A DNA stretch of 64,000 bases from Bdellovibrionales bacterium (GTDB taxonomy: Bacteria; Bdellovibrionota; Bdellovibrionia; Bdellovibrionales; UBA1609). The translations under genes were made by a program, and so were the position numbers. The notes under the pieces are model-generated. The model was not told the origin of the DNA, searched no databases, and saw only the letters and a program-made list of their open reading frames with translations. Shown here in pieces: positions 1,741 through 55,660 of this stretch; position 1 is the first letter of the stretch, and every line of letters starts with the position of its first letter. The stretch spans positions 1,632,001-1,696,000 of the forward strand of contig OZ241877.1 in NCBI GenBank assembly GCA_965203095.1, given 5' to 3'.

Positions 1741-1932
1741 TAGTCCCCCGTGAAAAAGTCTCAGTAAGACCTTCTCATTCTCTGCTTTTACAGGGGCAGA
1801 CTTTTCAATCACTTTTGCCTAAAGGCCGTCCCATGAGGGTCCAAGGTATTGCCGTCCCGAAATGGGACGGACCTTTAGGCAAAGAAACTGAAGAATCCCC
1901 TGTGAATTATAGAGGTTTTTCACGAGCGACTA
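1741..1932. mobile_element. MITE/REPIN-like element, copy A (hairpin subtype 1)
   Basis: Terminal IRs TAGTCCCCCGTGAAAAA / TTTTTCACGAGCGACTA. Internal ~21-bp stem (1814-1834 / 1862-1883) around a 27-nt loop identical (reverse complement) to the loops at 40852 and 55430. Confidence 0.8.
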
Positions 1933-1991
1933 TTTAGTTTACTTCAAAAAAAACTTGACCTCCTCCCACAGTGCTTGTAGGAAAAAGGGCT

Positions 1992-2336
1992 ATGGATAAA
2001 ATTCGGGAAATTTGCCTCAAAAGCTATCCTTTAAAAAACAACTCTCTCCAGCCGGGGGACACAGTTAAAGTCTCTCTCCTGGTAAAAGAAGGAAGTAAAG
2101 AGAGGGTCCAAATCTTCGAGGGGCTTGTGATTAAAATCCAAGGGCAGGATTTTTGCCGATCCTTTACTGTGCGAAAGATCTCCTCAGGAGTGGGGGTGGA
2201 GAAGACCATTCCCCTGGCCAGCCCTTATATTAAAAATATAGAGATCTTGTCTCGTGCTCGAGTCCGAAGGGCCCGTCTTTTTTATTTGCGTCGTCTCAAA
2301 GGCCGAGCTGGTCGCTTAAAAGTCAAAAGTCAGTAG
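1992..2336 (+). CDS. rplS: 50S ribosomal protein L19
   Basis: PGDTVKV, KERVQIFEGLVI, FTVRKISSGVGVEK, VRRARLFYLR. ATG at 1992 preferred over GTG at 1971. Confidence 0.97.
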   Translation: MDKIREICLKSYPLKNNSLQPGDTVKVSLLVKEGSKERVQIFEGLVIKIQGQDFCRSFTVRKISSGVGVEKTIPLASPYIKNIEILSRARVRRARLFYLRRLKGRAGRLKVKSQ

Positions 2337-2494
2337 CCCCCTGTTATTTTTTTAAGAATAGCCGGCTTTTTCATGGTTCTATTTTTCTGAAAGTTGAACC
2401 CAACAAATCGCCTGCTTAGAAGAGCTGAGAGCATAAATTTTCTTTTTTGCACTTATCTTATAGACTGGAATGGACAGGAAACTAAAGGAAAGTT

Positions 2495-4333
2495 TTATTG
2501 ATTTTTAAGGTTATGGTTTTTTGGTAAAAAAATTAATATTAAAATCAGTGCTATTAAACTGAACCATAAAACTATGGGGTTGATGAGATGGCCCCATAAG
2601 GCAAACACAGTTTTTTGTTCTCTGTTTGAAGAGTAGGGGACTTTTACAAACCAAGCCCCTTTTTTAGCAGGAAGGATAGTCAGCTCCCCTTTAGCAGAGA
2701 TCACAGCAGAGAGGCCGGAGTTGGTCCCGCGAAGTAAGGGCCGGCGGACTTCTATCGCACGGGCTAAAGTCATATACAGATTTTGCAAAGGTTCTTGCCA
2801 ACTTCCAAACCAAGAATCATTGGCAACATTGATTAAAATGTCCGCCCCCGATGTCGACAGATCACGAGTGAGCCTGGCAAATAAAGACTCATAGCAAATC
2901 TGAAATCCCAAATTCAATCCGTTGAGAGAAATAATTTTATTGTCCCCATGCCCTTTGTCAAAAGTGATGTCTCCAAAAAGGCTTTTGCTCCACTTGGGGA
3001 AAAAGTGAATGAAAGGGGCCTTTTCCCCAAAAAGCATTAAAATCATTTTGTCATAAGAACCTTGAACTATCCGACCCTCCCTATCAAAAACAAAAATAGA
3101 GTTGCTTTGTTGAGACTGGTAATGCCCTTCGGCTGAAACAATTAAAGGGGTGTTAAAAACCAAGGGCCATTTTTGCACTGGATCCTGACCTTTTAGGGCA
3201 TATTCTTTATTTATAGGATAAGGCCAAGCTCCCTCTGGCCATAAAATGAAATCTAAGTTTTCTATAGCAGAATGTTCCATAAGGGCTGGCCCCAGCCTCT
3301 TTTTTTGAGAAGTTTTTGTAGGAAAAAAAAGATCTCCCTCAAGGGGAGATTTATACTGATCGGGCCACAAAAGCCGGGAAGTCTCTTGCAGGAGTCGGGA
3401 TGAGATAAAATCATCCCATTGTTCTTTTCCTTGTTTTTGATTTTCAATATGGGGTTGAACCAGCAAAACAGAGGCTTGGCTGTCGGGTGCTGTCCATCGG
3501 CTTTTTAAATAAAGCCCATAAATATTGAGGCTGAAAAAAAGGGCCAAGCCAATAGATAGAGGGACATAAATGCCTTTGTTTTTTATTGCCTGAGAAAAGA
3601 CAGACCGAAGAGATAATTTTTGAACTGAGAGTTTTATTTTTTTAAAAAATAGGCTCAAGGTATGAGCTAAAGCCTTTTTCTTTTGAGTTAAAATACCTTT
3701 AGGCTGAGAGGAAAGTTGGAAAAAAGATTTATGAAAATTTTTGAAAGCCAATAAAAACAGAAAGTTAAAAAACAAAGTCAGGCTGTTTAAAAATTGAAAG
3801 CCCCATATTTCTGCTGTTTGAAAGGCGGGCCATCCGGCATAAAGCCAAGTGTAGCCAAAGTGCCATTTAAAAATGATATAATAATACTCCATGCTCAATA
3901 GGGAATAGAGAGGGAGAAATAAGAGTGAAATTTTTTTAAGAGCGGTGTCAGATTTTTGGGGACTTTCCCACACGAAGGATCTGATAGGGATCAGGGCCTT
4001 CTCACTAAAGGACCAAAGGCTCAAAGCTATGGGGATATGAAGATTGGCTAAAGAGGCAAAGGCTATAAGGCCCAACAAAGACAGGGGCCAAGGTAAAATA
4101 TCAAACTCTTTTATTGTGTAATTTAGGTAGTTAAAGCCGATTAAAGTTCCTGCAAATTGTGAGAACCAGCCCCCAATAAAAAGGGATTTAAAAGATGGTC
4201 TTTTTAAAGCAAAAAACCAAAGGGGAACATAGCAAAAAAATAGTGCCCAAGGAGGGAAGGGGATAAAGCTTAAGCCCATTAAAATGCCGGAAAGCAAAGG
4301 CAGAAAGTAAAAACGGATGAACCGGACAGGCAT
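2495..4333 (-). CDS. lnt: Apolipoprotein N-acyltransferase
   Basis: N-terminal TM helices plus a nitrilase-fold E-K-C triad: WPEGA, YDKMILMLFGE, QICYES; NDSWFG; RAIEVRRP. Confidence 0.93.
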   Translation of the reverse strand: MPVRFIRFYFLPLLSGILMGLSFIPFPPWALFFCYVPLWFFALKRPSFKSLFIGGWFSQFAGTLIGFNYLNYTIKEFDILPWPLSLLGLIAFASLANLHIPIALSLWSFSEKALIPIRSFVWESPQKSDTALKKISLLFLPLYSLLSMEYYYIIFKWHFGYTWLYAGWPAFQTAEIWGFQFLNSLTLFFNFLFLLAFKNFHKSFFQLSSQPKGILTQKKKALAHTLSLFFKKIKLSVQKLSLRSVFSQAIKNKGIYVPLSIGLALFFSLNIYGLYLKSRWTAPDSQASVLLVQPHIENQKQGKEQWDDFISSRLLQETSRLLWPDQYKSPLEGDLFFPTKTSQKKRLGPALMEHSAIENLDFILWPEGAWPYPINKEYALKGQDPVQKWPLVFNTPLIVSAEGHYQSQQSNSIFVFDREGRIVQGSYDKMILMLFGEKAPFIHFFPKWSKSLFGDITFDKGHGDNKIISLNGLNLGFQICYESLFARLTRDLSTSGADILINVANDSWFGSWQEPLQNLYMTLARAIEVRRPLLRGTNSGLSAVISAKGELTILPAKKGAWFVKVPYSSNREQKTVFALWGHLINPIVLWFSLIALILILIFLPKNHNLKNQ

Positions 4334-4893: not shown

Positions 4894-4895
4894 AT

Positions 4896-16544: not shown

Positions 16545-16607
16545 GGATTCCCGCTTTCGCGGGAATGACGGAGTCCGCGGGAATGACGAGTTTTTCACGG
16601 GCAAATT
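16545..16607. repeat. dRS3/RPE-like short palindrome (ATTCCC-N8-GGGAAT) plus a partial second copy and a MITE right end
   Basis: GGATTCCCGCTTTCGCGGGAATGAC, then CGCGGGAATGAC, then TTTTTCACGGGC. Related copies at 46992, 48901 and 55489. Confidence 0.75.
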
Positions 16608-25617: not shown

Positions 25618-25698
25618 TGTTCCTCCTCCAGTTTTTTAACTGGCTTTTTTTTAAAAAAACTTTAGCCATGTTTTCTATCCTTATTAAAATTAAAAAAC

Positions 25699-26401: not shown

Positions 26402-26538
26402 GAGTCGTCCGTGAAAAAGGCTATATTTGATAGATCGCATAAGCAAAAGTCCAGCTTGTTCGCGGGAAAAATACCTTGGACCCTCACTGCTGACTTTTGC
26501 TTGTGCGATAAAAGACAGAGGTTTTTCACGGGGGACTA
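26402..26538. mobile_element. MITE/REPIN-like element, copy B (subtype 2)
   Basis: AGTCGTCCGTGAAAAA / TTTTTCACGGGGGACTA ends; stem ATCGCATAAGCAAAAG / CTTTTGCTTGTGCGAT; loop contains AATACCTTGGACCCTC. Confidence 0.8.
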
Positions 26539-31650: not shown

Positions 31651-31733
31651 AGAATGAAAATTGGACAAGATGAGATTTTTTTTGACATTTTTTATTTTTA
31701 TCTTTTATATAAAATGCTATTCAGGAGGTATTT

Positions 31734-32270: not shown

Positions 32271-32375
32271 ACACAAGTGGCTTTAAAAAACCAGTTCATC
32301 ATTTTAAAATGAATAAGCTGTGGTTTTTTTCATTGGAGGACCCGGACAGGAAAGATATTTTAAGCAGAGTTTTTT

Positions 32376-32452
32376 GCGGGTGTAGCTCAGCTGGCTAGAG
32401 TGCAACCTTGCCAAGGTTGAGGCCGAGGGTTCGAATCCCTTCACCCGCTCCA
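32376..32452 (+). tRNA. tRNA-Gly (GCC)
   Basis: GCGGGTG/CACCCGC acceptor stem, CAACC-TTGCCAA-GGTTG anticodon arm, TTCGAAT T-loop, encoded CCA. Confidence 0.97.
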
Positions 32453-32494
32453 TTTTTCAAACCTCAATGTTTGCAGGAAAAATACCTTAAATTT

Positions 32495-34541: not shown

Positions 34542-34548
34542 GAAAGTT

Positions 34549-35970
34549 TCAACCAATGCTGTTTTCTAACTTCATTTCAATCAGCTTGACGGCTTCTACG
34601 GAAAACTCCAAAGGCAGTTGTTTAAAAACCTCTTTACAAAAGCCATTGACGATTAAAGAGACAGCCTGCTCTGCACTCAAGCCTCTGGATTGCAGGTAAA
34701 AAAGCTGTTCTTCACTTAAGCGAGAGGTAGAGGCTTCGTGCTCTACAATGGCTGAGGGGTTTTGGGCTGAAATTATAGGGAGAGTTTTCGCTTTAGCCGA
34801 ATCTCCCACTAACATGGAATCGCATTGGCTGTAATTCCTGGCCCCTTTAGCTGAGGAATGAATTTTGACAAGGCCCCTATAAGCATTAACCGACTCGTTA
34901 GAGGAAATCCCTTTGGACAAGATAAGGCTTTTTGTATTTTTGCCCAAGTGAATCATTTTTGTTCCCGTATCGGCTTGCATTTTATCATGTGTAAGGGCTA
35001 CAGAATAAAAACGACCCTCCGAACGATCGCCTTTTAAAATACAGCTGGGATATTTCCATGTAATGGCAGAGCCAGCTTCTACTTGTGTCCATGAAATTTT
35101 GGAATCACTTCCCTGGCAAAGCCCTCTTTTAGTGACAAAGTTATAAACGCCCCCTCGGCCCTCTTTATTTCCGGAATACCAGTTTTGGACAGTGGAATAT
35201 CTGATCTCTGCCCTGTGTTTAGCAATAAGCTCCACCACGGCTGCATGAAGTTGATTGTTGTCGCGGATAGGGGCTGTGCAACCTTCCAGATAGTTGACAT
35301 AAGAGCCTTCCTCAGCAATGAGTAAAGTTCTTTCAAATTGCCCTGTTTCCCCCTGATTGATACGAAAGTAAGTGGAGAGATCTAAAGGGCAACGAGTGTT
35401 TTTAGGGATAAAGCAAAACGAACCATCTGTCCAAACCGCACTGTTCAGGCAGGCAAAAAAGTTATCTTTATAGGGGACTACAGTGCCGATATATTTTTTC
35501 ACTAACTGAGGATGATTTTGGATAGCTGAGGAGATGGAACAAAAAATAATACCTAATTTTTTCAATTTGTCTTCATGAGTTGTGGCGATGGAGACACTGT
35601 CAAAAACAGCATCCACAGCCACCCCGGCCAGCCTTTTTTGTTCTGAAAGGGGAATGCCTAACTTTTCAAAAGTCTCTAAAAGGCGAGGATCCACCTCATC
35701 CATGCTGGAGAGTTTTTTTTGAGGGGCTGGGGCCGAGTAATACCTCATATCCTGATAGTTAATGGGTGGGTATTTGAGCTTAGCCCAGTCCGGCTCTTTC
35801 ATGTTGAGCCACTGCCTATAGGCTTTTATCCTCAAATCCAAAACCCAATGAGGTTCTTTTTTTTTGGCAGAGAGAGCCTCTATGATTCCTTCGTTTAAGC
35901 CCTTAGGCAGGCTGTCTGAAGGGACATCACTTACAAAACCGTATTTGTATTCTTTTTGTTGAGCTGACAT
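34549..35970 (-). CDS. sufB: Fe-S assembly protein SufB
   Basis: [41 protein letters not shown]. Confidence 0.97.
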
Positions 35971-36097
35971 ATTTCTCTTCCATTATAATAAAGAGGGAAA
36001 GCCTAAGCCTCTATTATTAAATACAGGCTTTTTCACAGTTTATTATTATATGAGCTTTTGAAGAATAGTCAAACATTCATTTATAAAAACTAAAAGC

Positions 36098-38725: not shown

Positions 38726-38759
38726 CTCAGACGATAAAGAACAGAGTTGTCTCTTAGTG

Positions 38760-39014
38760 TCATAAAGTTTTTTTATCTTGTTTATTCACTTGTTTATTCA
38801 AAAGGGTCTCATACAATCTGTCAAAACGATCGCTTAACCTTTCTATCTTCTTATTTGTGTCCCCTATGTGATTATCTAACTTTGCATTTATCTGGCTTAT
38901 GTCTTTTGACACCCCATTCAGTTTAAAAAACATAACCCCCATAAGAATAAGCAAAATCAATGAAAAGAGAACTCCTTGCTCTAAAAGTATAAAAAAGCTT
39001 GTGATTTTTTCCAT
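38760..39014 (-). CDS. Small TM plus coiled-coil protein (paralog of 30443)
   Basis: TM then LDNHIGDTNKKIERLSDRFD; TTGACA-N18-TATGCT ends 6 nt before the ATG at 39014. Confidence 0.75.
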   Translation of the reverse strand: MEKITSFFILLEQGVLFSLILLILMGVMFFKLNGVSKDISQINAKLDNHIGDTNKKIERLSDRFDRLYETLLNKQVNKQDKKTL

Positions 39015-39171
39015 AATAACAGCATAAGGCTTTAGTTTAATACCTGTCAAGGTTTTTTCCAAAAAAAAGTCCGATTTTGAGCAAAAAAACCCAGGAAATA
39101 TGGAGGGGCCAGCAAAAAAAACTTCATGAGGTTTTGGGCAAAAACAGTTGTTTGCAGGTGATCAGTGAGTT

Positions 39172-39759
39172 TTATTTTGTGGGAGGGCCTAATAAAGGAT
39201 AATTCCAATGGGACAATTGCTGAATCACGGAAATAAGAGGTAGGCCCTCAATAGAGTAAAAATCCTCTGTTTGTATTTTTTCAAACAGCTGGATACCTTT
39301 AGACTCTATGTGATAACTCCCCGCACTTTTTAAAGGTTTTTCGCTCAAAACATAGTTCTTGATCTGTTTTAAACTTAAGTGCCGCATGCTCAACCGGCTT
39401 TTAATTAAACGGGAAAAACTTTTTTGGCCCCAAAGTATGTAAAGCCCACTCAAAAGGCAGTGGGTTTTACCCTGTAGTTGTATTAAAGTCTCTATAGCCT
39501 TTTTTGTGGTGTGAGCTTTACCAAAGAGTTGCCCCTCATGCAAAACCATTTGATCGCAAGCAATAATGATTTCTTTTTCATAAAGTGTTTGGGCTTTAAG
39601 GGCTTTTTGCCGGGCAATTTCTATACAAGAGTTTTCTGGTTTTTTATGATTGAGGAACAGCTCTTCATCAATATTAGGGGCAAAACTTGTAAAAACAAAG
39701 CCGGCTTGGGCCAACAACCTTTTCCTGCTGGGGGATTGGCTGGCTAAAATGATTTTCAT
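39172..39759 (-). CDS. maf: Maf-family nucleotide pyrophosphatase
   Basis: IILASQSPSRKRLL, IDE, IACDQ, FGK, AGSY, GLP. Confidence 0.9.
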   Translation of the reverse strand: MKIILASQSPSRKRLLAQAGFVFTSFAPNIDEELFLNHKKPENSCIEIARQKALKAQTLYEKEIIIACDQMVLHEGQLFGKAHTTKKAIETLIQLQGKTHCLLSGLYILWGQKSFSRLIKSRLSMRHLSLKQIKNYVLSEKPLKSAGSYHIESKGIQLFEKIQTEDFYSIEGLPLISVIQQLSHWNYPLLGPPTK

Positions 39760-40087
39760 TGGATGAAGCCCTTCTTGCAAACACAATTTTACAGACAAAT
39801 AAGCTTGTTTATATTATGAGAGCTTTTTTGTTGTCAAGGGCGGGAGGAGCTTATCCTGCCTTTGTTGTGGAAAGGTTTTTCCGACTTGTCCATCTTTTCC
39901 GCAAAGTTTTGTCTAAAAGAGTGATAAAGCAGGTTGTAAAGTTATGCAGGACAGGCATTTAAAAACACTTCCCGGCGAAAGGCCAGTTTTTTGAATCTAT
40001 TGGATCTTTTCTATCCTCCTTTAAAAAAGGAAAGCTAAACTGAGCTTGTCAAAGGCAGTTCATTAAACTCACTCACAGAGGGCTAAA

Positions 40088-40792
40088 ATGTTTACAAAAA
40101 ACAAGCCAGTTTTAATTACCTTTAATTTTATTTTATTACTACTATTCAGTGCTTGTTCTTTACTTTCAGCTAAAAATAAGCAGAACAAAGCAAAAGATTT
40201 TCGTGAGCTATCTTCTTCCAGTCATCCATCAGTTTGCCATCAGAACAATTATAAAGAGTATATCTTCGATTTTGAAAAAACAGAGAACTTGATAAAGAGA
40301 ACCCTTAGAGGTTGCAATTTGCAAAAGATCAATTTACAAGGGGCTTTTTTGCAAGGAGCTTTTTTGCAAAGGGCGAATTTAAAAGGGGCAGTTTTACAAA
40401 AGGCGAATTTGTATGGTGCCAACTTACAAAGGGCGGATTTACGAGAAGCTTATCTTCAAGAGGCGAATCTGCAAGGGGCTTTTTTGCAAGGGGCAGTTTT
40501 GCAAAAGGCAAAGTTGGAATCAGCAAATTTACAATGGGCGGATTTGCGAAAGGTGTATTTAAAAGAGGCCCAATTACAAAAAGCCAATCTGGAAGAAGCT
40601 GTTTTGCGAGAGGCTTATTTGCGATGGGCGGATTTTCAATCAGCAAATTTGCAAAAGGCAAATTTGCAAAAGGCGGATTTGCGAGATGCGAGTTTTCGAA
40701 AGGCGAATTTACAAAATGCATATTTAAAAGGGGTTATTTATAATGATCAGACATCTTTCCCATTTAATTTTGACAAAAACAGATTGAAATAA
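40088..40792 (+). CDS. Pentapeptide-repeat lipoprotein
   Basis: Lipobox FSAC; long A(N/D/F)L(Q/R)x repeat tract; C-terminal IYNDQTSFP. Confidence 0.9.
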   Translation: MFTKNKPVLITFNFILLLLFSACSLLSAKNKQNKAKDFRELSSSSHPSVCHQNNYKEYIFDFEKTENLIKRTLRGCNLQKINLQGAFLQGAFLQRANLKGAVLQKANLYGANLQRADLREAYLQEANLQGAFLQGAVLQKAKLESANLQWADLRKVYLKEAQLQKANLEEAVLREAYLRWADFQSANLQKANLQKADLRDASFRKANLQNAYLKGVIYNDQTSFPFNFDKNRLK

Positions 40793-40793
40793 A

Positions 40794-40950
40794 TAGTTGT
40801 CCGTGAAAAACCTTTGTTTTTTAACTTTTTTTGTCCAAAGGACCATTCCATTTCGGGACGGCAATACCTTGGACCCTCATGGAATGGCCTTTGGACAAAA
40901 TCAGGAAAAAGAAGATGAGGCTTTTTGTCCAGCTTTTTCACGGACGACTA
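40794..40950. mobile_element. MITE/REPIN-like element, copy C (subtype 1)
   Basis: TAGTTGTCCGTGAAAAA / TTTTTCACGGACGACTA; stem TTTGTCCAAAGG(A)CCATTCCAT / ATGGAATGGCCTTTGGACAAA; invariant loop at 40852-40878. Confidence 0.82.
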
Positions 40951-41228
40951 AATAGTCTAAAACTGTATTCCCGTTATGAATCTTTAACTCATGTTCATTT
41001 AAAATGTTCATTTAAATCTGCTGTTAATTTTTTGAACAGTTTTTTTAAGCTTGTGTCAAAACCCTTAGTTGTTTGGCCTCTCAGTTCCTGTTTTTATTGA
41101 GAAAAAATCAAAAATCCCTTATTTATATACTTGTCGGCAAAGGCATTTTTGAAAAACTTAAAATGGTTTTTTAAATTTGTCTAAAACTTGAAAACAGGTT
41201 TGTTAAACAAAATAAAAAGGAGGTTAAA

Positions 41229-42173
41229 ATGATTTTTTTGCAAGCCGGACAAAACCAAATGGATTTGGGTGATCATTTTGAGGATGTGGAAAAAGCACCG
41301 GGATCCGTTTTTATAGCCAAGTCACCGGCTATGAGGTCCATTTATAGGAAAATAGAAGAGATAGCCAGTTCCTCTACTCCTGTTCTTATTTTAGGAGCTG
41401 ATGGGACAGGCCGGAGCACAACAGCCCATGAGATCTTTAATAAAGATATCGAGTCCCATTCATTTAAAAAGCTGTCCTGCCATAAGTTGGACAAAAGCTG
41501 TATTGATGAAAAGTTATTTGGTTCTGAATTTTCAAAAGGTCTTTTGGACTTTGATCGAGGACATACTCTATTTATAAAAGGCTTGGACTGTTGGTCTCCC
41601 ATTTTGCAGAAACGGTTTTTATCCTGGCTTTTAAACCAAAGTCAAAAAGGCCCTCGTTTGATTTTTTCTGCTAAAGAGGATCTATTTGAGGATGTTCAGT
41701 CGGGCCGTTTTTCCAGGGAGCTGTTTGGAGTTTTAAGTCAAAGCCTTTTGGCTCTCCCTTTGCTTTCTGAAAGGACAGAAGGGATTCCCCTATTTATCTC
41801 TTTGTTTAACCGGCAAAATGACTTTAAAGGTCGCCTCAGCTCAAAGGCTTTGCAGGCCATGAAGTTTTATCCTTATGGAGGGAATATTAAAGAGCTGAGT
41901 CATATTTGCTTACAAATGGCTGTTTCATATATGGATAAAGAAATCATTACAGAGGAGGATTTAGCTATGATTCATAAAAAAATAGAAAAACCAGTAGAGG
42001 GCAAGCATATCAAATACAACCCTCATCTGTCTTTAGAGCAGATGGTCAACAGTTATATACAAATGTCTTTAAATCACTTTCAATCAAAAAAGAAAAGTGC
42101 TGAGGCTTTGGGCATTTCTGTAAAAACCATTTACAATAAAATAAAGACAGGTGTTATAGTTTGCTCTGAGTGA
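41229..42173 (+). CDS. Degenerate sigma54-activator-like (AAA+/Fis-HTH) regulator
   Basis: SPAM..I, PVLILGADGTGRS, YPYGGNIKEL, SAEALGISVKTIYNKI; GAFTGA loop and Walker B are absent. Confidence 0.8.
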   Translation: MIFLQAGQNQMDLGDHFEDVEKAPGSVFIAKSPAMRSIYRKIEEIASSSTPVLILGADGTGRSTTAHEIFNKDIESHSFKKLSCHKLDKSCIDEKLFGSEFSKGLLDFDRGHTLFIKGLDCWSPILQKRFLSWLLNQSQKGPRLIFSAKEDLFEDVQSGRFSRELFGVLSQSLLALPLLSERTEGIPLFISLFNRQNDFKGRLSSKALQAMKFYPYGGNIKELSHICLQMAVSYMDKEIITEEDLAMIHKKIEKPVEGKHIKYNPHLSLEQMVNSYIQMSLNHFQSKKKSAEALGISVKTIYNKIKTGVIVCSE

Positions 42174-42212
42174 TATAATGATCAGTTTTTTACGCTCAAC
42201 AAATCTATTTGT

Positions 42213-42275
42213 TAGTGGCCCGTGAAAAACCTTATCCAAAAGCCGGGAGCTTTTGGATAAATTTACGGGAGATTA
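42213..42275. repeat. Mini MITE-family copy D with a different internal hairpin; probable bidirectional terminator
   Basis: TAGTGGCCCGTGAAAAA, then perfect 12-bp stem TTATCCAAAAGC / GCTTTTGGATAA, then degenerate right end TTTACGGGAGATTA; between convergent genes. Confidence 0.65.
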
Positions 42276-42327
42276 TCTCAATCTGCAAATACATATAGCG
42301 AAAGAGAGAGGTTTTTTAAGATGAGAG

Positions 42328-42747
42328 CTAAAATAAACCCTCATCGTCCCCTTCTTCATCATCTAAATCTTCAAGACTGTCAAAAGGATCTTCAAAACTC
42401 ATGTCCCCTTCCTCCTCATCATCTTCATTGGGAGGGTAGTCATTGTCTTTAAAAGATTCGAAACGGCCTTCTTCTTCATCATCCTCAAAATCTTGCTCTT
42501 CGTCTTCAAAGCCCTCATATTGCTCTTTATCTTCTGAAAAATTTTTATCAAAAGCTTTTGGACTGGTGTCAGACAGGCCATGAGATAATAAGTTCTGTCT
42601 CATTTTTGTTTTTTTGGCCTTTGCTTTTTTAGAGCTTTTTTTCTTATAGCTGGGCTTTTTTTTAGCTGTTGCTTTTTTAGAGCTTTTTTTTGGTAAAGGT
42701 TTAATGTTTTTTCTTTTTTTAACTGGTTTTTTAACGGTTTTTTTCAT
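42328..42747 (-). CDS. Low-complexity bipolar protein (Lys-rich N-half, Asp/Glu-rich C-half)
   Basis: Composition of the translation; AAGGAG RBS upstream of the ATG. Confidence 0.7.
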   Translation of the reverse strand: MKKTVKKPVKKRKNIKPLPKKSSKKATAKKKPSYKKKSSKKAKAKKTKMRQNLLSHGLSDTSPKAFDKNFSEDKEQYEGFEDEEQDFEDDEEEGRFESFKDNDYPPNEDDEEEGDMSFEDPFDSLEDLDDEEGDDEGLF

Positions 42748-42777
42748 TTAGGAAACTCCTTACTTTTGGCCCTCAAT

Positions 42778-42912
42778 CAGCCTCCCGTGAAAAAGCTCTG
42801 TAATTTCACAGCAAAGCAAAAACTCTGCGGTGAGTATCCAAAGTGCTCTGCCCCGCACAAGCAGAGCTTTTACTTATGCGATCTCTAAAGACAGACTTTT
42901 CACAGGCCACTA
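42778..42912. mobile_element. MITE/REPIN-like element, copy E (subtype 2, reversed, diverged)
   Basis: CAGCCTCCCGTGAAAAA / TTTTCACAGGCCACTA; CTTTTACTTATGCGAT arm; GAGTATCCAAAGTG is a diverged reverse-complement loop. Confidence 0.7.
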
Positions 42913-43083
42913 ACATTAGAGCCTTGTTTTAAAAAATGAACCAATACCCAGCTCAAAATGCCGGGCAACAGGCTTATTTTTTTGCCCCTGCTAAAAGCTG
43001 TCAAGACTATTTTTCAAAAAAAATGTTTAAGTTTAAAAAAAGGCCAGGTTGACAAAAAAAGCAAAGCTCCACACATTAAATAT

Positions 43084-45666
43084 ATGAGAAAATTACTGGA
43101 AAAAATGACACAAAAAAGCAAAGAGGCTTTTCAGGAGGCGGTTTTAGAGGCTCAAAAAAATCAAAATCCCAGTATAGAGCCGATTCATTTCATTTTAGAG
43201 ATTTTACGCCAAAAAGAGGCTTTGGCCTCTCAAATAGTGGAGCTTTCGCCTCTCAGCAGGGCCGAGTTGATAAAAGATTTGGAGCAAGAAGTCCGTCATC
43301 TTCCCAAAGTCAGTGGTTCTTCCTCCCCTCCCTACCCCTCCAATGAACTGATCCGGCTTTTGTCCGATTCGGAAAAAGAGGCCGAAAAACAAGGGGATAT
43401 TTATATTTCCACAGAGCATTTTGTGTTGGCTTTTTTGTCTTCTTCGCAAAGAGTGGCTAAAAAAATAGCCGAAAGGCAGAATTGGGATCGCCAGGCCTTT
43501 TTAACAGCAATTAAAAAGCTCAAAGGGGGTAAAAAAGTTCAGTCGGCCCATCCGGAAGATCAAATCAATGTTTTAGATAAATACACACGCGATCTCACTC
43601 AACTGGCGGAACAAGGCCAGTTGGACCCTGTAATAGGTAGGGACAGCGAGATCCGCCGGCTGATACAGGTTTTGTCTCGTAGAACAAAAAATAACCCTGT
43701 GCTTATTGGAGAGCCAGGGGTGGGAAAAACCGCCATTGCTGAAGGTTTGGCCCTCCGCATTTTAAAAAAAGATGTTCCGGAAGCTCTTTTTGGCAAGAAG
43801 GTTCTGGCTTTAGATTTGGCTGTAATGATTGCCGGGACTAAATATCGAGGGGAATTTGAAAATCGTATGAAGGCTTTAATCTCTGAGCTGAAAGCCAGTG
43901 AAGGGAGGATTTTTTTATTTATAGATGAGTTGCACACTTTGGTTGGAGCGGGGAAAACCGATGGGGCCATGGATGCCGGACAGATGCTGAAGCCGGCTTT
44001 GGCACGAGGGGAGTTAAGGGCTATTGGTGCCACCACTTTAGATGAATACAGAAAGTTTATTGAGAAGGATAAAGCCTTAGAAAGACGCTTTCAAATTGTT
44101 TTTGTTAAAGAACCGGGGGTGGCGGACTCTCTGACTATACTCCGTGGGCTGAAGGAAAAGTATGAAGCTCATCACGGGGTTCGCATTAAGGATTCGGCCC
44201 TTTTATCAGCGGTCAAATTGTCCCATCGCTACATTTCTGATCGCTTTTTGCCGGACAAGGCTATTGACTTGATAGATGAGGCCGCCAGCCGGTTGAACAT
44301 TGAAATTCACAGTGTTCCCGCCGTTATTGACGAAAATCAAAGGAAGATCATTCATCTTCAGGTGGAAAAAAAGGCTCTGCTTAAGGAAAAAGGCCCGGCG
44401 GAGAAAAAACGATGTTTAGAAATTGAAAAAATTTTAAAAGACTTGAAGGAACAAACAAAAACATTAAAAACTCAGTTAGAAAAAGAAAAAGGATCTATTT
44501 TAAAACTTCGTTCCCTCAAAAGGGAAACGGAATTGATTAAACAGGATATTGAGCGATCGGAACGGGAAGGGGCTTTAGACAAAGCCGCTGAGTTAAAATA
44601 TGGCCGACTTCCCCAAATAAAAAAAGAGCTTTCTGCCCTGGAAGAAAAAGCACGAGATAATTCTTCTCATTCACTTTTGAAGGAAGAAGTGGGGCCGGAG
44701 GAGATTGCTGAAGTGGTTTCTCAATGGACAGGCATTCCCTTAAAAAAAGTTTTGCAAAAGGAAGTGGAAAAACTGCTTTCTATGGAAAAACTTTTGAGGA
44801 AAAGAGTTTTAGGGCAGGATCAGGCTCTGTCTCTTGTAAGTGATTCGATCCGCCGGGCTCGAGCTGAGCTTTCTGATCCGGAAAGCCCTTTGGGCAGTTT
44901 TATCTTTTTAGGTCCTACAGGTGTGGGCAAAACGGAGACAGCGAAAGCTTTAGCAGAATTTCTTTTTGATACAGAAAAAGCTCTCATTCGCTTAGATATG
45001 AGCGAGTATATGGAAAAGCACAGCGTGTCTCGCTTGGTAGGGGCACCGCCAGGCTATGTGGGTTTTGAAGAGGGAGGGCAACTTACGGAAAGGGTCCGGC
45101 GACAACCCTATAGCATTATTCTTCTTGATGAGATAGAGAAGGCCCATCCCGATGTTTTCAATATTCTCTTGCAGGTTTTAGATGATGGTCGGCTAACAGA
45201 CGGGCAGGGGAGAGCTGTGGATTTTAAGAGCACGGCTTTAATTATGACCAGCAATTTAGGTTCTGATATTTTGTCTGATGAAAGCTTAAAAGAGGATGAA
45301 AAACAAACAAAAATCATGGATGTTTTAAAAAAACATTTTCGCCCTGAGTTTTTAAACCGCATAGATGAAGTGGTTATTTATAACTCTTTAGATAAGGAGC
45401 AAATTGAACAGATTGTTAAAATTCATATTCAAAGGGCAGAAGATCGCTTAACAGAGGGGGGAAAGCTGGACTTAGATTCAAAAGCACTTTCTTTTTTATC
45501 TAAAAAAGCTTTTGATCCGGTTTATGGTGCTCGCCCTGTTAAGCGAGCCATTCAAAGGGAGTTGTTAAACCCCTTGGCCCAAAAGCTGTTAAAAGCTGAG
45601 ATTTCAAAAAAATCCAAAATAAAGGTCACAGCCAATGATTTGAGGTTGGAATTTAAAAATAACTGA
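43084..45666 (+). CDS. clpB: ATP-dependent chaperone ClpB
   Basis: Two AAA+ modules (GEPGVGKT, GPTGVGKT), long coiled-coil M domain, GAPPGYVG; start placed at 43084. Confidence 0.96.
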   Translation: MRKLLEKMTQKSKEAFQEAVLEAQKNQNPSIEPIHFILEILRQKEALASQIVELSPLSRAELIKDLEQEVRHLPKVSGSSSPPYPSNELIRLLSDSEKEAEKQGDIYISTEHFVLAFLSSSQRVAKKIAERQNWDRQAFLTAIKKLKGGKKVQSAHPEDQINVLDKYTRDLTQLAEQGQLDPVIGRDSEIRRLIQVLSRRTKNNPVLIGEPGVGKTAIAEGLALRILKKDVPEALFGKKVLALDLAVMIAGTKYRGEFENRMKALISELKASEGRIFLFIDELHTLVGAGKTDGAMDAGQMLKPALARGELRAIGATTLDEYRKFIEKDKALERRFQIVFVKEPGVADSLTILRGLKEKYEAHHGVRIKDSALLSAVKLSHRYISDRFLPDKAIDLIDEAASRLNIEIHSVPAVIDENQRKIIHLQVEKKALLKEKGPAEKKRCLEIEKILKDLKEQTKTLKTQLEKEKGSILKLRSLKRETELIKQDIERSEREGALDKAAELKYGRLPQIKKELSALEEKARDNSSHSLLKEEVGPEEIAEVVSQWTGIPLKKVLQKEVEKLLSMEKLLRKRVLGQDQALSLVSDSIRRARAELSDPESPLGSFIFLGPTGVGKTETAKALAEFLFDTEKALIRLDMSEYMEKHSVSRLVGAPPGYVGFEEGGQLTERVRRQPYSIILLDEIEKAHPDVFNILLQVLDDGRLTDGQGRAVDFKSTALIMTSNLGSDILSDESLKEDEKQTKIMDVLKKHFRPEFLNRIDEVVIYNSLDKEQIEQIVKIHIQRAEDRLTEGGKLDLDSKALSFLSKKAFDPVYGARPVKRAIQRELLNPLAQKLLKAEISKKSKIKVTANDLRLEFKNN

Positions 45667-45677: not shown

Positions 45678-46271
45678 ATGACAAAAAAAGGTTTTTTTGT
45701 GACAGGAACAGGCACAGGGGTGGGGAAAACTCTCGTCTCCCTGGGGCTTTGCCTACATTTTAAAGCGGATTATTGGAAGCCTGTTCAAACAGGTCAGCCC
45801 AGTGATGTGAGTTTTATCCAAAAATTTTTACCAAAATCTCAAATTCACCGCAGTTCAGAAAGTTTTAAAGCCCCTCTCTCCCCCAATCAATCCGCAGAGG
45901 AAGAGGGCCGGAAAATAGATTTAAAAAATATTATTGTTCCTAAAAGCTCTTTTTTAATTGTTGAGGGGATTGGCGGGGTTTATGTTCCTTTAAATAAAAA
46001 GGAAAACCTTATGGATCTGATGCAAAAAATTTCTCTACCTTTAATTGTTGTGGCTCATAGCGGGATAGGAACTCTCAATCACAGCTTACTCACATTGTCA
46101 GTTTTACAAAAAAGACAGCTTGAAGTTGCGGGGGTGATTTTGTCCGGCCCAAAAAACAAAAAAAACAAAAGGGATATAGAACATTATGGGCAAGTTCCCG
46201 TGATTTTAGAAGTCCCCCCTTTGCCTCAAATTACAAAAGCCAAGCTTAAGGCATTGTTTAGTCGCCTGTAA
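45678..46271 (+). CDS. bioD: Dethiobiotin synthase
   Basis: FVTGTGTGVGKT, WKPVQTG, IVEGIGG, GTLNH. Confidence 0.93.
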   Translation: MTKKGFFVTGTGTGVGKTLVSLGLCLHFKADYWKPVQTGQPSDVSFIQKFLPKSQIHRSSESFKAPLSPNQSAEEEGRKIDLKNIIVPKSSFLIVEGIGGVYVPLNKKENLMDLMQKISLPLIVVAHSGIGTLNHSLLTLSVLQKRQLEVAGVILSGPKNKKNKRDIEHYGQVPVILEVPPLPQITKAKLKALFSRL

Positions 46272-46294
46272 AAAATGATTCTGTCAGCGAAATA

Positions 46295-47095: not shown

Positions 47096-47287
47096 TCAAG
47101 AACCGTTTTTAAGCTTTTTGATCTCTCGAACAGGTAGGCCCGTCACTTTAGAGATGACAGCCAAATCCAGCTTTTCTCTCAACATATTCCGGATAACTTC
47201 CTCCCGTCCCTCTTGCCGACCTTCTTGCCGACCTTCCTGTCGTCCTTCCCAGCGACCTTCCAGCCGAATTTCCTCTTTTATGTCCAT
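47096..47287 (-). CDS. Predicted intragenic RpnS antitoxin (63 aa)
   Basis: In-frame AAAGGAGG-CTAT-ATG precedes MDIKEEIRLEGRWEGRQ... Confidence 0.7.
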   Translation of the reverse strand: MDIKEEIRLEGRWEGRQEGRQEGRQEGREEVIRNMLREKLDLAVISKVTGLPVREIKKLKNGS

Positions 47288-48067
47288 ATAGCCTCCTTTC
47301 TTTAATAAAGCCTTCTTAATAGCCTCTTCCTCCAACTTGTTCCAAAGCTTAATATTTACCCCCGCCGACCTCAAATACTTGGCCACAGCCAATATCCACT
47401 CATCACGCTTAAAAACCCTAAAAAAAGCAAATAATACCTCCCGCAACTCCCGCTCATTATCCTTTAAAAACCACACACGGTCCAACAACTGTAAAACCCG
47501 ACCCGTCTTAAAACTCCGATCATCAAAAACCCTCTGAACCCTCCTATCCCCTGTATTCAATAACCTCAAACCATAATTTAACATGTTTTTTCTAAAAGAT
47601 CGAGGAATTTTTAAAAAAAACTCTCCTAAAACAACCTCCTGAAAAGACAACTTCCAACTCCAAGGGACTTTTCCGTGATAAAACAAAACAGGAATTACCA
47701 CTATCCTCTGTTGGGACTGCTCATAAAGCTTTGTCTGATACCTTAAAACCTGCTTAAAGAGATTTTTGTCATATTTGGACTTGTGCTCAAACAGGACGAC
47801 TATCCTGATCTGGCTTTTAGGAAAGTTTTTTAGGGGAAAAGACAAAACCAAGTCCATCTGCTTATCTTTAAAAAGGCTTTTTTCTACTTTGAGTTTTGAT
47901 AGATTACAGGCTTTTAACTCCTCTTTAGACAATATCAATCTCACAATCTCCTCAGCAAATTGAGGCTGAGAATAGAATCTTTTAAAAAATTTGTCGTGAT
48001 GATTTCCGGGCTTTAATACCGAAAATTCCCCAAGTTCTTTTTTAGTTTTTTGAGTTTTGATTTTCAT
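47096..48067 (-). CDS. Rpn-family (YhgA-like PD-(D/E)xK) nuclease, long form
   Basis: HDKFFK, MDLV...LFEHKS, PVLFYHG, C-terminal EGRQ repeats and ISKVTGL HTH; AAGGAG RBS. Confidence 0.92.
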   Translation of the reverse strand: MKIKTQKTKKELGEFSVLKPGNHHDKFFKRFYSQPQFAEEIVRLILSKEELKACNLSKLKVEKSLFKDKQMDLVLSFPLKNFPKSQIRIVVLFEHKSKYDKNLFKQVLRYQTKLYEQSQQRIVVIPVLFYHGKVPWSWKLSFQEVVLGEFFLKIPRSFRKNMLNYGLRLLNTGDRRVQRVFDDRSFKTGRVLQLLDRVWFLKDNERELREVLFAFFRVFKRDEWILAVAKYLRSAGVNIKLWNKLEEEAIKKALLKKGGYMDIKEEIRLEGRWEGRQEGRQEGRQEGREEVIRNMLREKLDLAVISKVTGLPVREIKKLKNGS

Positions 48068-48120
48068 TGGTATATTCTCCTTATTAGTTGGTGTTTAACT
48101 TACTGAGAATCCAAAAAAAT

Positions 48121-48149
48121 AGTATAAAGTGCTTTTTATGGAAAAGCAA
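48121..48149 (-). promoter_or_regulatory. Sigma70-like promoter of rpn
   Basis: TTGCTT-N17-TATACT on the minus strand. Confidence 0.6.
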
Positions 48150-48197
48150 GCTATGGCTTAAAGAAATTGAAGAATAATGCAATCTTTTTAACAAGGC

Positions 48198-48263
48198 TTT
48201 TCACAGGCGATTAAGTCGCTCGTGAAAAAGCTCTGTCCGTTATCGCATAAGCAAAAGACCAGC
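48198..48263. repeat. Tail-to-head junction of two truncated MITE-family copies
   Basis: TTTTCACAGGCGATTA abuts AGTCGCTCGTGAAAAA..ATCGCATAAGCAAAAGACCAGC. Confidence 0.7.
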
Positions 48264-48359
48264 TTAAAAGACAAAGCCTCACAATAAAGCTCTGCCCTTT
48301 TGTGTGAAAAATTTACAAAAGACTTTATTTTCCCGGCCATCCTGCTATAACCCTACACA

Positions 48360-48857
48360 ATGAAAATACTATTGAGCCTTATTCTTTTAATAAGCTTGCC
48401 GGCTTTTGCTAACTGCCGGAATGTTTTTGAGCCTGATTTAGAACCCGATAAAAAACAGGTAGAGCTGATTAAAAAAATCAGACAAGGGAAAAAAAACTTG
48501 GCAAGGGCGAACTTGAGAGAGGCGAAATTGGCGGGAGCGGACTTGATATTGGCAAAATTGACAGGGGCAGACTTGAGAAAGGCAGACTTGTCAGAGGCGA
48601 AATTGTCAGGGGCGAAATTGGAGAGGGCGATCTTGCAAGGGGCGAACTTAGAAAGGGCGAGATTGTATGGGGCGAACTTGACAAGGGCAGACTTGACAGA
48701 GGCCGACTTGCAAGGGGCGAACTTGGAAAGGGCGATCTTGACAGAGGTTAAATTGACAGGGGCGGACTTGAAAGGGGCTTTTATAGACTCAAAATATCGT
48801 GACATGATTATGGACAGCGGAGCATTAAACACAGACAAGATTAACTGGGTGGATTGA
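48360..48857 (+). CDS. Secreted pentapeptide-repeat protein (cassette 3)
   Basis: Signal MKILLSLILLISLPAFA; A(D/N/K)Lxx repeats; C-terminal IDSKYRDMIMDSGALNTDKINWVD. Confidence 0.9.
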   Translation: MKILLSLILLISLPAFANCRNVFEPDLEPDKKQVELIKKIRQGKKNLARANLREAKLAGADLILAKLTGADLRKADLSEAKLSGAKLERAILQGANLERARLYGANLTRADLTEADLQGANLERAILTEVKLTGADLKGAFIDSKYRDMIMDSGALNTDKINWVD

Positions 48858-48959
48858 GCTTTTGCCCTTTGTGTGAAAAATTTATAAAAGACGATATTTT
48901 GGATTCTTGCTTTCGCAGGAAAGATGGGCTGAGCTTTTTCATTGGCGAATAAATTAAGC

Positions 48960-54069: not shown

Positions 54070-55200
54070 CTAAGGCATTTTCAGCTCTTTGCAAAATAAT
54101 TCAAACGGCAGGACCCTCACCCCTCCCTTTTCATAATTTTTATTTTTTTGATGAACTTGATAAAAGCCAGGGATATTTGTCCTCTCTTTAAAGTAGCGAA
54201 TAGAAGGGGAAACTTGGGAGTCTCCTGACTTGCACTCCACAGCAAAGACAGGTTTTTTGTTTTTAAGAAGAACAAAATCCACTTCCCTTTTGTCTGTATC
54301 TCTAAGAAATCTCAGGTCCCATTTCTCTCCTTCAGTATCTTCTTTAAAGTGACAATATTTGAGCAGTTGGCTCGCCACTAAGTTTTCAAATCTCGGCCCT
54401 TCTTTTTCAATAGAAGTCCAGTTGTAAAGGTAAAGCTTTTTTTCTTTTTTGACGGCACGAATGCGAGGCGGACCAAAAGGCAAAATGCGAAAGCAAACAA
54501 AAAGGCTTTCTAAAATACAGATCCATCTTTCCACGGTTTCGTGAGAAACTTCTAAATCCTCTTTTAAGTTTTTGATCGATAGGGGAGAGCCTACTCTTTC
54601 TGGCAAGGCTGACACAAGAGTTTCTAAAATGTCTAATTCCTTGACTCTTTCTAAGTCACGAACATCCTCTCGAACAAGCCCATCCGCTCTTTCTTTTTGC
54701 CATCTCATGTAGATTTTTTTTGATCCAGCAAAAAGAGGTTCTGGAAAACCGCTCAAGTTTAGAAGATCCTTCAAGTCTTTTTTTGTGGGACGAGGGTTTA
54801 ACTCTCTGAGAGAAAAGGGGTGCATGCGGTAAGAAAAGTAACGACCCTGAAGGGAATCACCCCCGCGACTATAATGTTTTAAGCTACCTGAGCCTGTGAT
54901 GAGGAAGTGCCTTTTTGATTTTTCTTTATCGTAAAGCCCCTTCAATAAATTTCTCCAGCGAGAGTATTTATGCAGTTCGTCAAATAGCAAAATTTTTTCA
55001 TTAGGGGGCAGTTGTTCGGCCAGTATTCTTTTTCTGTCCTTTTTAGAATCCCAATTTAAGTAGGTGGGATGGCTCTCCGAGCCTTTTTTTAAAAAGCTTA
55101 AGGAAAAGGTGGTTTTGCCCACTTGACGGGGGCCGGAAAGGAAAACCATCTTCTTTTTTAAATCTTTTTTAATGGTTTTTTTAAGGTATCTTTCACTCAT
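54070..55200 (-). CDS. AAA+ (AAA_14) ATPase with C-terminal DUF4143 / PD-(D/E)xK-like domain
   Basis: GPRQVGKTT, FDELHK, TGSGS, DSLQGR, SGFPEP, KLYLY, FENLV, REVDFV...AVECK. Confidence 0.88.
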   Translation of the reverse strand: MSERYLKKTIKKDLKKKMVFLSGPRQVGKTTFSLSFLKKGSESHPTYLNWDSKKDRKRILAEQLPPNEKILLFDELHKYSRWRNLLKGLYDKEKSKRHFLITGSGSLKHYSRGGDSLQGRYFSYRMHPFSLRELNPRPTKKDLKDLLNLSGFPEPLFAGSKKIYMRWQKERADGLVREDVRDLERVKELDILETLVSALPERVGSPLSIKNLKEDLEVSHETVERWICILESLFVCFRILPFGPPRIRAVKKEKKLYLYNWTSIEKEGPRFENLVASQLLKYCHFKEDTEGEKWDLRFLRDTDKREVDFVLLKNKKPVFAVECKSGDSQVSPSIRYFKERTNIPGFYQVHQKNKNYEKGGVRVLPFELFCKELKMP

Positions 55201-55257
55201 AAGTATATAAATACTATCATAGTCCTATGTGAAAAAGCAAGTCATCCCGCAAATGCT

Positions 55258-55346
55258 CAGTAAAACAGACCTGATTTTATCCATGAGTAAAGTCAGATGG
55301 ACCTGATTTTACTCACGAGTAAAGTAAGATGGACCTAATTTTACTC
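55258..55346. repeat. Tandem array of 30-bp palindromes (period 32) upstream of the ATPase
   Basis: GAGTAAAGTCAG-ATGGAC-CTGATTTTACTC (55285-55314), GAGTAAAGTAAG-ATGGAC-CTAATTTTACTC (55317-55346), degenerate copy at 55258-55282. Confidence 0.85.
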
Positions 55347-55350
55347 ATGT

Positions 55351-55660
55351 TGGTTTTTGCTTATACGATAGTAAGGGCAGAAGCTTTTCACAGGCAATTC
55401 TTTAGGTTCTTTGCCCAAAGCCACAGCATTTCGGGACGGCAATACCTTGGACCCTCATGCTGTGGCTTTGGGCAAAAGCAGATAGACAGTCATTCCCGTG
55501 AAAACGGGAATCCATTTTGGACTTTAACCATGAAAAAAGTCTATATTTAATAGATCGCATAAGCAAAAGACCATTCTTTTTCAGGACAATAATACCTTAG
55601 ACCCTCACCGTTGGTTTTTGCTTATGCGATAAAGAACAAGAGCTTTTTCACGGGCGACCA
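55351..55660. mobile_element. Cluster of MITE-family pieces: right half, subtype-1 hairpin, dRS3-like palindrome, subtype-2 copy
   Basis: Perfect 20-bp stem 55410-55429 / 55457-55476 around the invariant loop; GTCATTCCCGTGAAAACGGGAATCC at 55489; ATCGCATAAGCAAAA...TTTTGCTTATGCGAT...TTTTTCACGGGCGACCA. Confidence 0.78.

Follow-up and report, generated by a model that had tools for sequence, protein, structure and literature searches.

The window, by which we mean the whole 64-kb stretch of DNA analysed, lies in a 1.8-Mb Bdellovibrionales genome (G000) that holds about 120 copies of one repeat family. These repeats are short, non-coding, multi-copy hitch-hiker transposons. The first in the window is a 188-bp MITE on the plus strand (1743..1930), with 15-bp inverted repeats (TIRs) at 1743-1757 and 1916-1930 and a decayed target duplication matching at 3 of 6 positions. 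Its hairpin (1813..1884; structured strand plus; 47.7 bits with our covariance model) has arms at 1813-1834 and 1862-1884 and an unpaired base at 1871, and the core between the arms (1835-1861) is predicted to fold into tandem G-A pairs and one 3-bp helix, in which 1837-1839 pair with 1856-1858. A 133-bp MITE of a second stem type follows on the minus strand (26404..26536; hairpin 26434-26509; 6-bp duplication with one mismatch), and it scores 70.3 bits with the covariance model, of which this copy is itself a part. The 153-bp MITE at 40796-40948 (minus), with its exact 6-bp target duplication (40790-40795 and 40949-40954), spans 40790..40954; its hairpin, also on the minus strand, lies at 40829-40900 with the unpaired base at 40842. 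A decayed 131-bp MITE of the second stem type is found at 42780..42910 (plus; hairpin ~42803-42884; 43.7 bits with the covariance model); this MITE is also on a contig of a related strain (sequencing run X5).

Partial and composite elements are present as well. The 59-bp mini-element at 42215..42273 (no strand assigned) consists of a TIR, a small unrelated palindrome, and a degenerate second TIR, and lacks the conserved core. At 48197..48262 (no strand assigned), two TIRs stand back to back (48197-48211 and 48215-48229) and are followed by a single arm, all within a segment that carries an rpn gene and is present four times. Fourteen rpn gene copies were noted. The mosaic array at 55226..55658 (minus) starts with a TIR-like end and contains 2.5 copies of a 32-bp palindrome (55268-55347), a half element reaching ~55394, a TIR-less hairpin (55409-55477), a dRS3/NTS-type palindrome (55492-55511), and an element at 55523-55658 with its hairpin at 55554-55630 and its right TIR at 55644-55658. 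Solo TIRs, none assigned to a strand, lie at 16591..16605 (adjoining a dRS3/NTS-type palindrome at 16547-16566), at 46261..46275, and at 48935..48949 (preceded by a degenerate palindrome of that type at 48903-48922).

A first-pass annotation of this DNA had described a 27-nt loop, identical at 1835-1861 (reverse strand), 40852-40878, and 55430-55456, between arms that differ in sequence yet pair, and a second subtype at 26402, 42778, and 55523 with a truncated copy at 48213. These descriptions hold, as does that of a single unpaired base recurring on the same arm in several copies, at position 10 in the first type and position 6 in the second, with the base identity varying. Genome-wide, the 27-mer core with up to two mismatches gave 80 matches, and the reversed-pattern control gave 0. 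A 16-nt part of it gave 122 matches, 43 of them exact. Placement within the shared ends is not general: at a relaxed threshold, 55 of these 122 copies have both TIRs, another 30 have one, and 37 have none. MITEs of 153 bp (n = 13), 188 bp (n = 8), and 133 bp (n = 6) form size classes, the hairpin also occurs in mosaic arrays (BIME-like clusters), and dRS3/NTS-type repeats, searched with a loose pattern, lie within 250 bp of 36/122 copies (background, 17%).

Sequence comparison leaves us very confident that these elements are non-autonomous IS5-family MITEs; their transposase, which is no longer found in G000, would have acted in trans and inserted them at TA-NN-TA targets. The shared ends, given earlier as ~17 bp, are real inverted repeats of 15 bp only, and the TA outside them belongs to the target duplication (6-7 bp, TA-NN-TA). 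This duplication is exact in 24/46 pairs in G000 (shuffled mean 3.8 and maximum 11 in 5000 shuffles) and is found in 52/89 pairs in 400 kb of G114 sequence. The proposed comparison of empty sites yielded element-free paralogous sites for 2 of the 56 pairs tested, one with a clean junction; for window positions 24500-43100, sequencing runs gave no empty-site joint among the joints listed. Full-length IS5 elements with the same TIR type are present in G017, G115, and G119, and those of G017 have the same ends and 6-7-bp duplications, exact in 4/6 pairs. The G017 and G115 transposases score 470 and 461 bits, respectively, against NF033578 (cut-off 275), and the latter is 43% identical to that of ISRm12. 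As first reported for the window, no cognate transposase is present there, nor is one found in G000 as a whole (90% complete; best tblastn E 0.27). IS5 occurs in 7/384 genomes of the order, 5 of them in this family and all of these among its six TIR-rich relatives. Close relatives of the G115 transposase were sought in metagenome and viral data with no useful result. The local IS630 was rightly set apart from the repeats by its ends, and both IS630 and IS1634 were rejected as partners because their ends differ from the repeat TIRs.

The annotation had taken a match to a catalogued family as counting against its reading, and such a match exists at the level of element class (IS5-family MITE) and not of a named family; in the literature searchable outside subscription journals, we found no description of this one. 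ISRm12-type IS5 elements (NCBIfam NF033578), namely ISRm12 and a Leptospira IS5, share the kind of 15-bp TIR and the TA-NN-TA duplication. The bacterial MITEs Correia/NEMIS, Nezha, and Chunjie are alike in size, TIRs, target duplications, stable predicted folds, mobilisation in trans, and empty/filled sites; however, in the part of the source available (PMC3184786) they are described with stable folds and without any core that shows covariation in nested short helices or is swapped between subfamilies. The kind of element is ordinary, but the shape of its hairpin is kept far better than expected.

In one IS5 lineage, the hairpin that the MITEs carry at their centre is a subterminal structure, which overlaps the transposase stop codon and adjoins the right TIR. 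G115 and G114 (80% amino acid identity) have it at the 3' end of IS5, the right TIR is present in 9/9 G115 hairpin copies examined, and the sense strand of the transposase is the one that is structured, with the stop codon in the stem. ISRm12 and Leptospira IS5, unlike this lineage, have no subterminal hairpin. The hairpin is not required for transposition, since it is also missing from eight further IS5 loci of the same type and since, in G111, G115, and G005, MITEs bounded by the same TIRs have either different hairpins or no hairpin at all. Right-right fusion MITEs, one in G115 (L317) and one in G114, show in two cases that two right ends were joined through the inverted arms of the hairpin, which places the hairpin at the MITE centre, and this may be the general route of MITE birth. 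It would differ from the making of MITEs by a left-plus-right deletion, and no MITE end resembling an IS5 left end was found. The route rests on these two examples since none of 298 G000 MITE ends matched the sampled IS5 left or right ends.

Among the copies listed, the hairpins are 70-110 nt long with a variable base and a conserved core and occur in both orientations. Copies sharing the identical 27-nt segment have very stable RNA folds (z-scores -6.4 to -8.4). That segment was first taken for an unpaired, frozen loop, and neither description survives: it is internally paired, in the form of tandem G-A pairs and of short helices whose covariation extends over eight genomes, and, with 43/122 copies exact, it changes per position as the spacers do. 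Within the three G000 size classes, distinct changes per position number 22/81 in the loop, 44/160 in spacers, and 16/143 in arms (loop above arms, p=0.003; arms below spacers, p=0.0005), so that after insertion the loop varies like spacer DNA. The inner triplets are matched in 147/149 cases against 44 expected, and in 90/94 without the stem filter; the four triplet types are each present in 3 to 5 of 5 stem families, and the tandem G-A pairs are near-invariant. Copies are not independent, and three triplet switches could each have arisen once. On one strand, G-T exceeds A-C (29 versus 12, p=0.012).

The earlier argument from compensatory stems and a frozen loop is weak because the loop goes on changing after insertion and because covariation of long arms can result from template switching, which can yield compensatory changes without selection (PMC8794818, PMC8604942). 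Arm covariation here is partly mechanical: five cassette inversions were found among 163 G114 copies (six flagged, one rejected by eye), with no clear case among 122 G000 copies, and in a loop-deleted (fold-back) copy the bulge is erased. Selection-free copying through the core is another matter, since it would erase the non-complementary loops between the 2-3-bp helices. What stands of the proposed selection on a folded single strand is thus carried by the short-helix covariation, the G-A pairs, and the one-strand G-T excess, which point to such selection, more likely on DNA.

Our best overall explanation, to which we give a probability of about 0.5, is that these are IS5 MITEs with a right-end hairpin, arms kept by copying, and a core read as a folded strand. 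The arms would stay paired largely through arm-to-arm copying (template switching), and the inner cassette may be swapped between copies. The core would consist of a 2-bp helix, the tandem G-A, a 3-bp helix, a small internal loop, and a variable tip, its shape being read on one folded strand. The putative reader is most plausibly the transposase of this lineage or host recombination proteins, and selection on the core would act as elements are copied and would not depend on a host function at individual insertion sites. The strand is probably DNA rather than RNA for the following reasons: (i) orientation relative to flanking genes is unbiased (23 versus 21, tested in G000), and (ii) G026, G118, and G115 have tips that conform to the DNA mini-hairpin GCGNAGC/GCGNNAGC (PMC13037366). 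The tip GTAA is also an RNA GNRA loop, most tips are uninformative, and the location of the structured strand on the sense strand suits RNA equally.

A less likely reading, which we put forward tentatively, is that the IS5 lineage itself uses a folded single-strand right-end signal (a long stem of free sequence, the tandem G-A core, and an exchangeable tip), which would be read by a protein during mobilisation and breed MITEs by right-end fusion. If so, DDE transposons would have a structure-read cis element besides their TIRs, and the intact cognate transposase in G115 makes reading of the folded strand by an IS5 transposase directly testable. Because related genomes still contain the parent IS, fusion intermediates, mature MITEs, and TIR-less hairpins, MITE birth by a route other than internal deletion can be traced. 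Mechanical covariation (long arms, template switching) can also be separated here from selected covariation (2-3-bp helices around the tandem G-A), and caution is warranted in covariation-based RNA discovery in repeats.

The rival that survives best, itself doubtful, makes the hairpin a REP-like unit in its own right that has a dedicated putative single-strand nuclease or recombinase and that was captured by one IS5 lineage and spread further by IS5 MITEs. Sister IS5 lineages do without the hairpin, and other hairpins ride in the same MITEs. Free-standing hairpins with unrelated stems occur in G109, G120, G026, and G118, where no IS5 was detected and where 0/36 copies have both TIRs and 30/36 have none; G120 has a six-copy tandem array with dRS3/NTS palindromes, and hairpins are inserted in either orientation between genes of atp, ribosomal-protein, and nuo operons. 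Against this, 5/24 G109 copies retain an upstream TIR, and none of the candidate partner genes fits. Y1/RAYT genes (PF01797) number 0 in G000 and are absent in 12/15 genomes of genus g18, those of the other three being IS200-type with other end hairpins, and the 20-40-bp REP palindrome with a terminal GTAG or CGTC tag was not seen by eye in the copies listed. In the available part of PMC3733652, REP/REPIN-RAYT and TIRtron systems share dispersed bulged hairpins, clusters, and possible single-strand recognition; they differ from our elements, which show no terminal tetranucleotide tag and no flanked Y1 transposase and have DDE-type target duplications. In G111 and G120, the repeats that flank the Ssn-like genes are of the dRS3/NTS type and not this hairpin, and the query used found no Ssn-like gene in G000 (where no gene of Ssn size was found), G109, G026, or G118. 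The dRS3/NTS (SRM)-Ssn repeats and CGTC REPs are likewise single-strand hairpin repeats that form mosaic arrays in symbionts, but, as far as the portions consulted describe them (PMC11893778, PMC3733652), differ in sequence and anatomy, the conserved part here being near the tip. Stand-alone DUF559, reverse transcriptase, and 250-aa GIY-YIG genes showed no link to the hairpin.

It is rather unlikely that the hairpin is an RNA element at the transposase mRNA 3' end (for stability, processing, or protein binding) that MITEs inherited passively. Its sense-strand location with the stop codon in the stem would suit this, as would the G-U wobbles and purine-rich internal loops on that strand and the long variants, in which both strands contain nested terminator-like hairpins (2 found against 0.3 expected). 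However, pairing is kept in MITE variants with neither mRNA nor orientation bias, triloop tips on 2-bp stems suit DNA, and, where a sense-strand terminator is nested, transcription would end ahead of the outer stem, whose helices persist anyway.

That the hairpin has no function, with arms paired by template switching, the core homogenised by gene conversion, and similarity across genera due to recent horizontal transfer, we consider improbable. The inversions and fold-back copy, the spacer-like mutation of the loop, core variants common to several subfamilies, and a 3.8-kb segment with 89% identity between hosts whose proteins are 46% identical in the median all agree with it. Yet non-complementary loops have survived between the 2-3-bp helices that covary, the G-T excess is confined to one strand, and the core is kept amid stems, tips, and spacers that cannot be aligned.

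Placement bears on a role at each insertion site. The copies, first described as all intergenic, overlap mechanically called ORFs in 12/122 cases in G000. Regions between divergent genes hold 48/108 copies (enriched over their length share, p=0.01) and those between convergent genes 16/108 (p=0.78, no enrichment); leading and lagging strands hold 52 and 70 (p=0.12, no bias, on a rough origin estimate). A host regulatory RNA, terminator, or attC-like site is thus very improbable, for despite the stable folds and divergent intergenic placement, there is neither convergent enrichment nor orientation bias, a T-run precedes the stem on both strands (an A-run comes after), nothing matches in Rfam, the hairpin was not found in 9/9 congeners, and older copies decay. 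As intrinsic terminators, only nested sub-hairpins of the long variants score. Integron attC sites need conserved base boxes, a variable tip, and one site per cassette in a single orientation, whereas our hairpins have a variable base and conserved core in both orientations, mostly in divergent intergenic regions. The suggested analogies to REP/RAYT, attC, and a protein-binding ncRNA fail for want of a RAYT, of attC anatomy, and of an Rfam family: Rfam 15 gives only a tRNA in the window and, for long and free-standing hairpins, only weak hairpin matches far below threshold. A likeness to the Bacillaceae-1 motif, which the part of PMC2864571 available only lists, has no Rfam support.

The covariance model finds the hairpin in 8/109 family genomes (at most 42 candidates scored per genome) and in 0/150 other genomes sampled from the phylum (at most 30 per genome). 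Exact-loop searches of relatives (0/60 and 0/400) missed them because their core is one base shorter or its tip longer, and a looser loop pattern gave mostly chance matches. Plasmid and viral scans found no hairpin, the nine viral matches all lacking stems. In the genome-collection scan, 78 of the 80 loci listed came from two Bdellovibrionales assemblies, and the other two were single chance matches without stems.

The repeats dispersed through the genome of Bdellovibrionales bacterium GCA_965203095.1 (G000; 1.80 Mb, 38% G+C, 90% complete) are, with a probability that we put at about 95%, MITEs of the IS5 family, i.e., short non-coding elements between two 15-bp terminal inverted repeats (TIRs), and they show every defining feature of such elements that could be tested. 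Their hairpin consists of paired arms around an internally paired core, or inner cassette, which the first-pass annotation had described as an invariant 27-nt loop. The motif positions named in the window were confirmed, but the loop is not invariant: 43 exact copies of the full 27-mer in G000 (80 at ≤2 mismatches) stand against 122 matches to a 16-nt part of it at ≤2 mismatches in a genome-wide pattern search. The claim that most copies sit within shared ends held for the 55 of these 122 that have both TIR-like ends and failed for the 30 with one and the 37 with none; as a control, 0.5% of random G000 positions fall between two TIR-like ends. The terminal TA assigned earlier to the repeat ends is target DNA and evidence of a TA-NN-TA duplication, since exact 6- or 7-bp direct repeats of this form flank 24 of 46 TIR pairs in G000, compared with a mean of 3.8 (maximum 11 in 5000 trials) under shuffled pairing. 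Comparison with empty sites yielded an element-free paralogous site for 2 of 56 pairs, with a clean junction in one.

Six relatives among 108 family genomes carry the TIR in abundance. The search for a transposase bounded by the same TIR returned a 1.56-kb element in G017, whose IS5-type protein reaches 470 bits against NF033578, an IS5 model with a cut-off of 275, and which shows the same type of duplication in 4 of 6 pairs. Transposases of this type are present in 7 of 384 genomes of the order, and the five family genomes with an IS5 transposase are all TIR-rich. Ends of the same kind are borne by ISRm12 and a Leptospira IS5. The cognate transposase is indeed absent from the window, with no trace of the gene in all of G000, and the ends of the local IS630 (and of IS1634) are unlike the MITE TIRs, as first reported. 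The repeats form a real, apparently undescribed family of a known kind; no description of it was found in the literature, in a coverage that excludes ISfinder and supplementary files. The relative G114 has a MITE of 268-270 bp whose TIRs are the same but whose multi-stem interior differs (L093:12638-12907, L097:5662-5929), and head-to-tail runs of three or four MITEs with single TA-NN-TA targets common to neighbours (L066, L060) suggest repeated insertion at earlier duplications.

On the sense strand of the transposase, the consensus structure begins with a long stem of free sequence, and a small internal loop separates it from a 2-bp helix. Tandem G-A pairs lead from there to a 3-bp helix, which a 5-nt/2-nt internal loop joins to a tip that measures from 2 to 15 or more bp. 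For one type, 94% of the cells pair in an alignment of 14 hand-picked copies taken from four genomes, compared with 30-48% in slid controls, and 20 of 26 pairs carry changes on both sides, a count that is descriptive only, because the same alignment shaped the structure. The evidence is stronger in a set of 163 G114 copies, drawn from 400 kb chosen around known TIRs and from loci among the matches listed. The inner triplets (GGG/CCC, GTG/CAC, GAG/CTC, AGG/CCT) are complementary in 147 of 149 cases (44 expected), or in 90 of 94 without the stem filter, and internal mismatches on the sense strand are G-T 29 times versus A-C 12 times (strict count, p=0.012), although both counts overstate the number of events because related copies are not independent. 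Every triplet type is seen in three to five of the five G114 stem families, and the 2-bp helix covaries too, across genomes. The covarying core is unusually well documented.

Distinct changes per position in three G000 size classes were 16/143 in the arms, 44/160 in the spacers, 22/81 in the loop and 45/90 in the TIRs; therefore, the loop is unprotected after insertion, and the arms are protected. Arms match in 33 of 38 G000 pairs and in 72 of 79 core-bearing G114 pairs (two of the 79 being a different element), unmatched arms being a minority left by single crossovers. In one G000 copy, the loop is gone and the arm pairs perfectly, even at the normally unpaired base, and in five G114 copies (six flagged of 163, one rejected) the cassette is inverted relative to the spacers. 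Arm homogenization and spacer inversion are among the template-switching products described in excerpts of PMC8604942 and PMC8794818.

The same core occurs, with wholly different stems, in MITEs of G114 and G119 (another genus). In IS5 copies of the relative G115, the coding strand bears the hairpin at the 3' end, the stop codon falling inside its 5' arm and the right TIR following ~40 bp beyond it; this TIR is present in all nine G115 hairpin copies examined. A G114 IS5 fragment (80% protein identity) has the same hairpin-bearing end; the hairpin is absent from eight other IS5 loci, and a ninth comprises the 5' half only. One G115 MITE (L317) is made of two IS5 right ends joined via their arms, and one G114 element has an IS5 right end on its 5' side; left-end matches were IS fragments only. 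None of the G000 element ends match the sampled IS5 ends, so their parents would be other IS5 variants. An extra small hairpin in the IS5 left end of some copies (L106:1388-1417, L101, L108) resembles that nested in long core variants.

Judging from ends and duplications, the MITEs are most likely moved by IS5 transposase acting in trans, and the hairpin would promote right-end fusion and inner-cassette exchange. Two right-end fusions and combinatorial cassette variants were seen directly, and this route may be general. A putative protein could read the core on the folded strand when elements are copied, which would explain why the core is kept. This account as a whole, including DNA rather than RNA as the folded strand, seems to us evenly balanced between right and wrong. 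DNA is favoured because orientation relative to co-directional flanking genes is unbiased among G000 copies (23 versus 21), no enrichment between convergent genes was seen among them, variants that nest a terminator-like hairpin keep their outer helices, and the DNA mini-hairpin GCGNAGC/GCGNNAGC, described as very stable in an excerpt of PMC13037366, fits tips from G026, G118 and G115. RNA may act instead, since the strand that folds is also the one that codes for the transposase.

A purely IS origin of the hairpin is counted against by its spread and by copies without a TIR pair: a covariance model matched in 8 of 109 family genomes (≤42 candidates scored per genome), and none of 36 copies in G109, G120, G026 and G118 has both TIRs; these copies separate genes within operons, facing either way, or belong to arrays that also contain dRS3/NTS palindromes. 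The model found no hairpin in nine congeners of G000. Hairpin DNA is 85-92% identical between G000 and G114, and a 3.8-kb segment with MITEs nearby and, by eye, helicase-like and methyltransferase-like ORFs is 89% identical (G114 L085:12625-16423; G000:C1 493762-497564). Since these values are far above the median protein identity of 46% (140 best hits of 258 ORFs), horizontal transfer between the two lineages is likely on sequence grounds.

As far as excerpts of the sources go, REP (PMC3733652) and NTS repeats (PMC11893778) resemble the G000 family in single-strand hairpins and mosaic arrays. The proposed REP/RAYT analogy failed in tests of membership, with no RAYT found, and NTS/Ssn membership was rejected, as no Ssn gene flanked by the hairpin was found. 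The hairpin is no attC site, contrary to another early suggestion, nor a terminator, and it corresponds to no Rfam family. Proteins of ~250 aa with a GIY-YIG domain and basic linker, one to five per genome (G000:C1 374349, 378992; L256-L266 in G119, G114, G115 and G111), showed no link to it.

Four copies of an element that we take, from the look of its protein, to be IS1634-like lie at G000:C1 175258-177179, 971121-973042, 1227585-1229518 and 1350952-1352884, and another at G115 L319. Very long direct repeats (1369, 1160, 84 and ~3350 bp) flank such copies, two of which directly adjoin a MITE end; in G115, one has duplicated a hairpin-holding segment. In the window, a 32-bp palindrome forms 2.5 tandem copies within a mosaic array (55268-55347), ORFs of 417 and 1851 aa at 57115-63939 have no Pfam match, and an rpn gene (TIGR01784) with back-to-back TIRs upstream (47096-48900) belongs to a segment with four repeats in the genome, which has 14 rpn-like ORFs altogether. 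An apparent tRNA gene lies between a TIR pair with nearly matching 6-bp flanks (G000:C1 226059-226254). The second contig, C2 (17191 bp), is a tandem run of a ~1.1-kb unit and possibly a concatemer or foreign to this genome.
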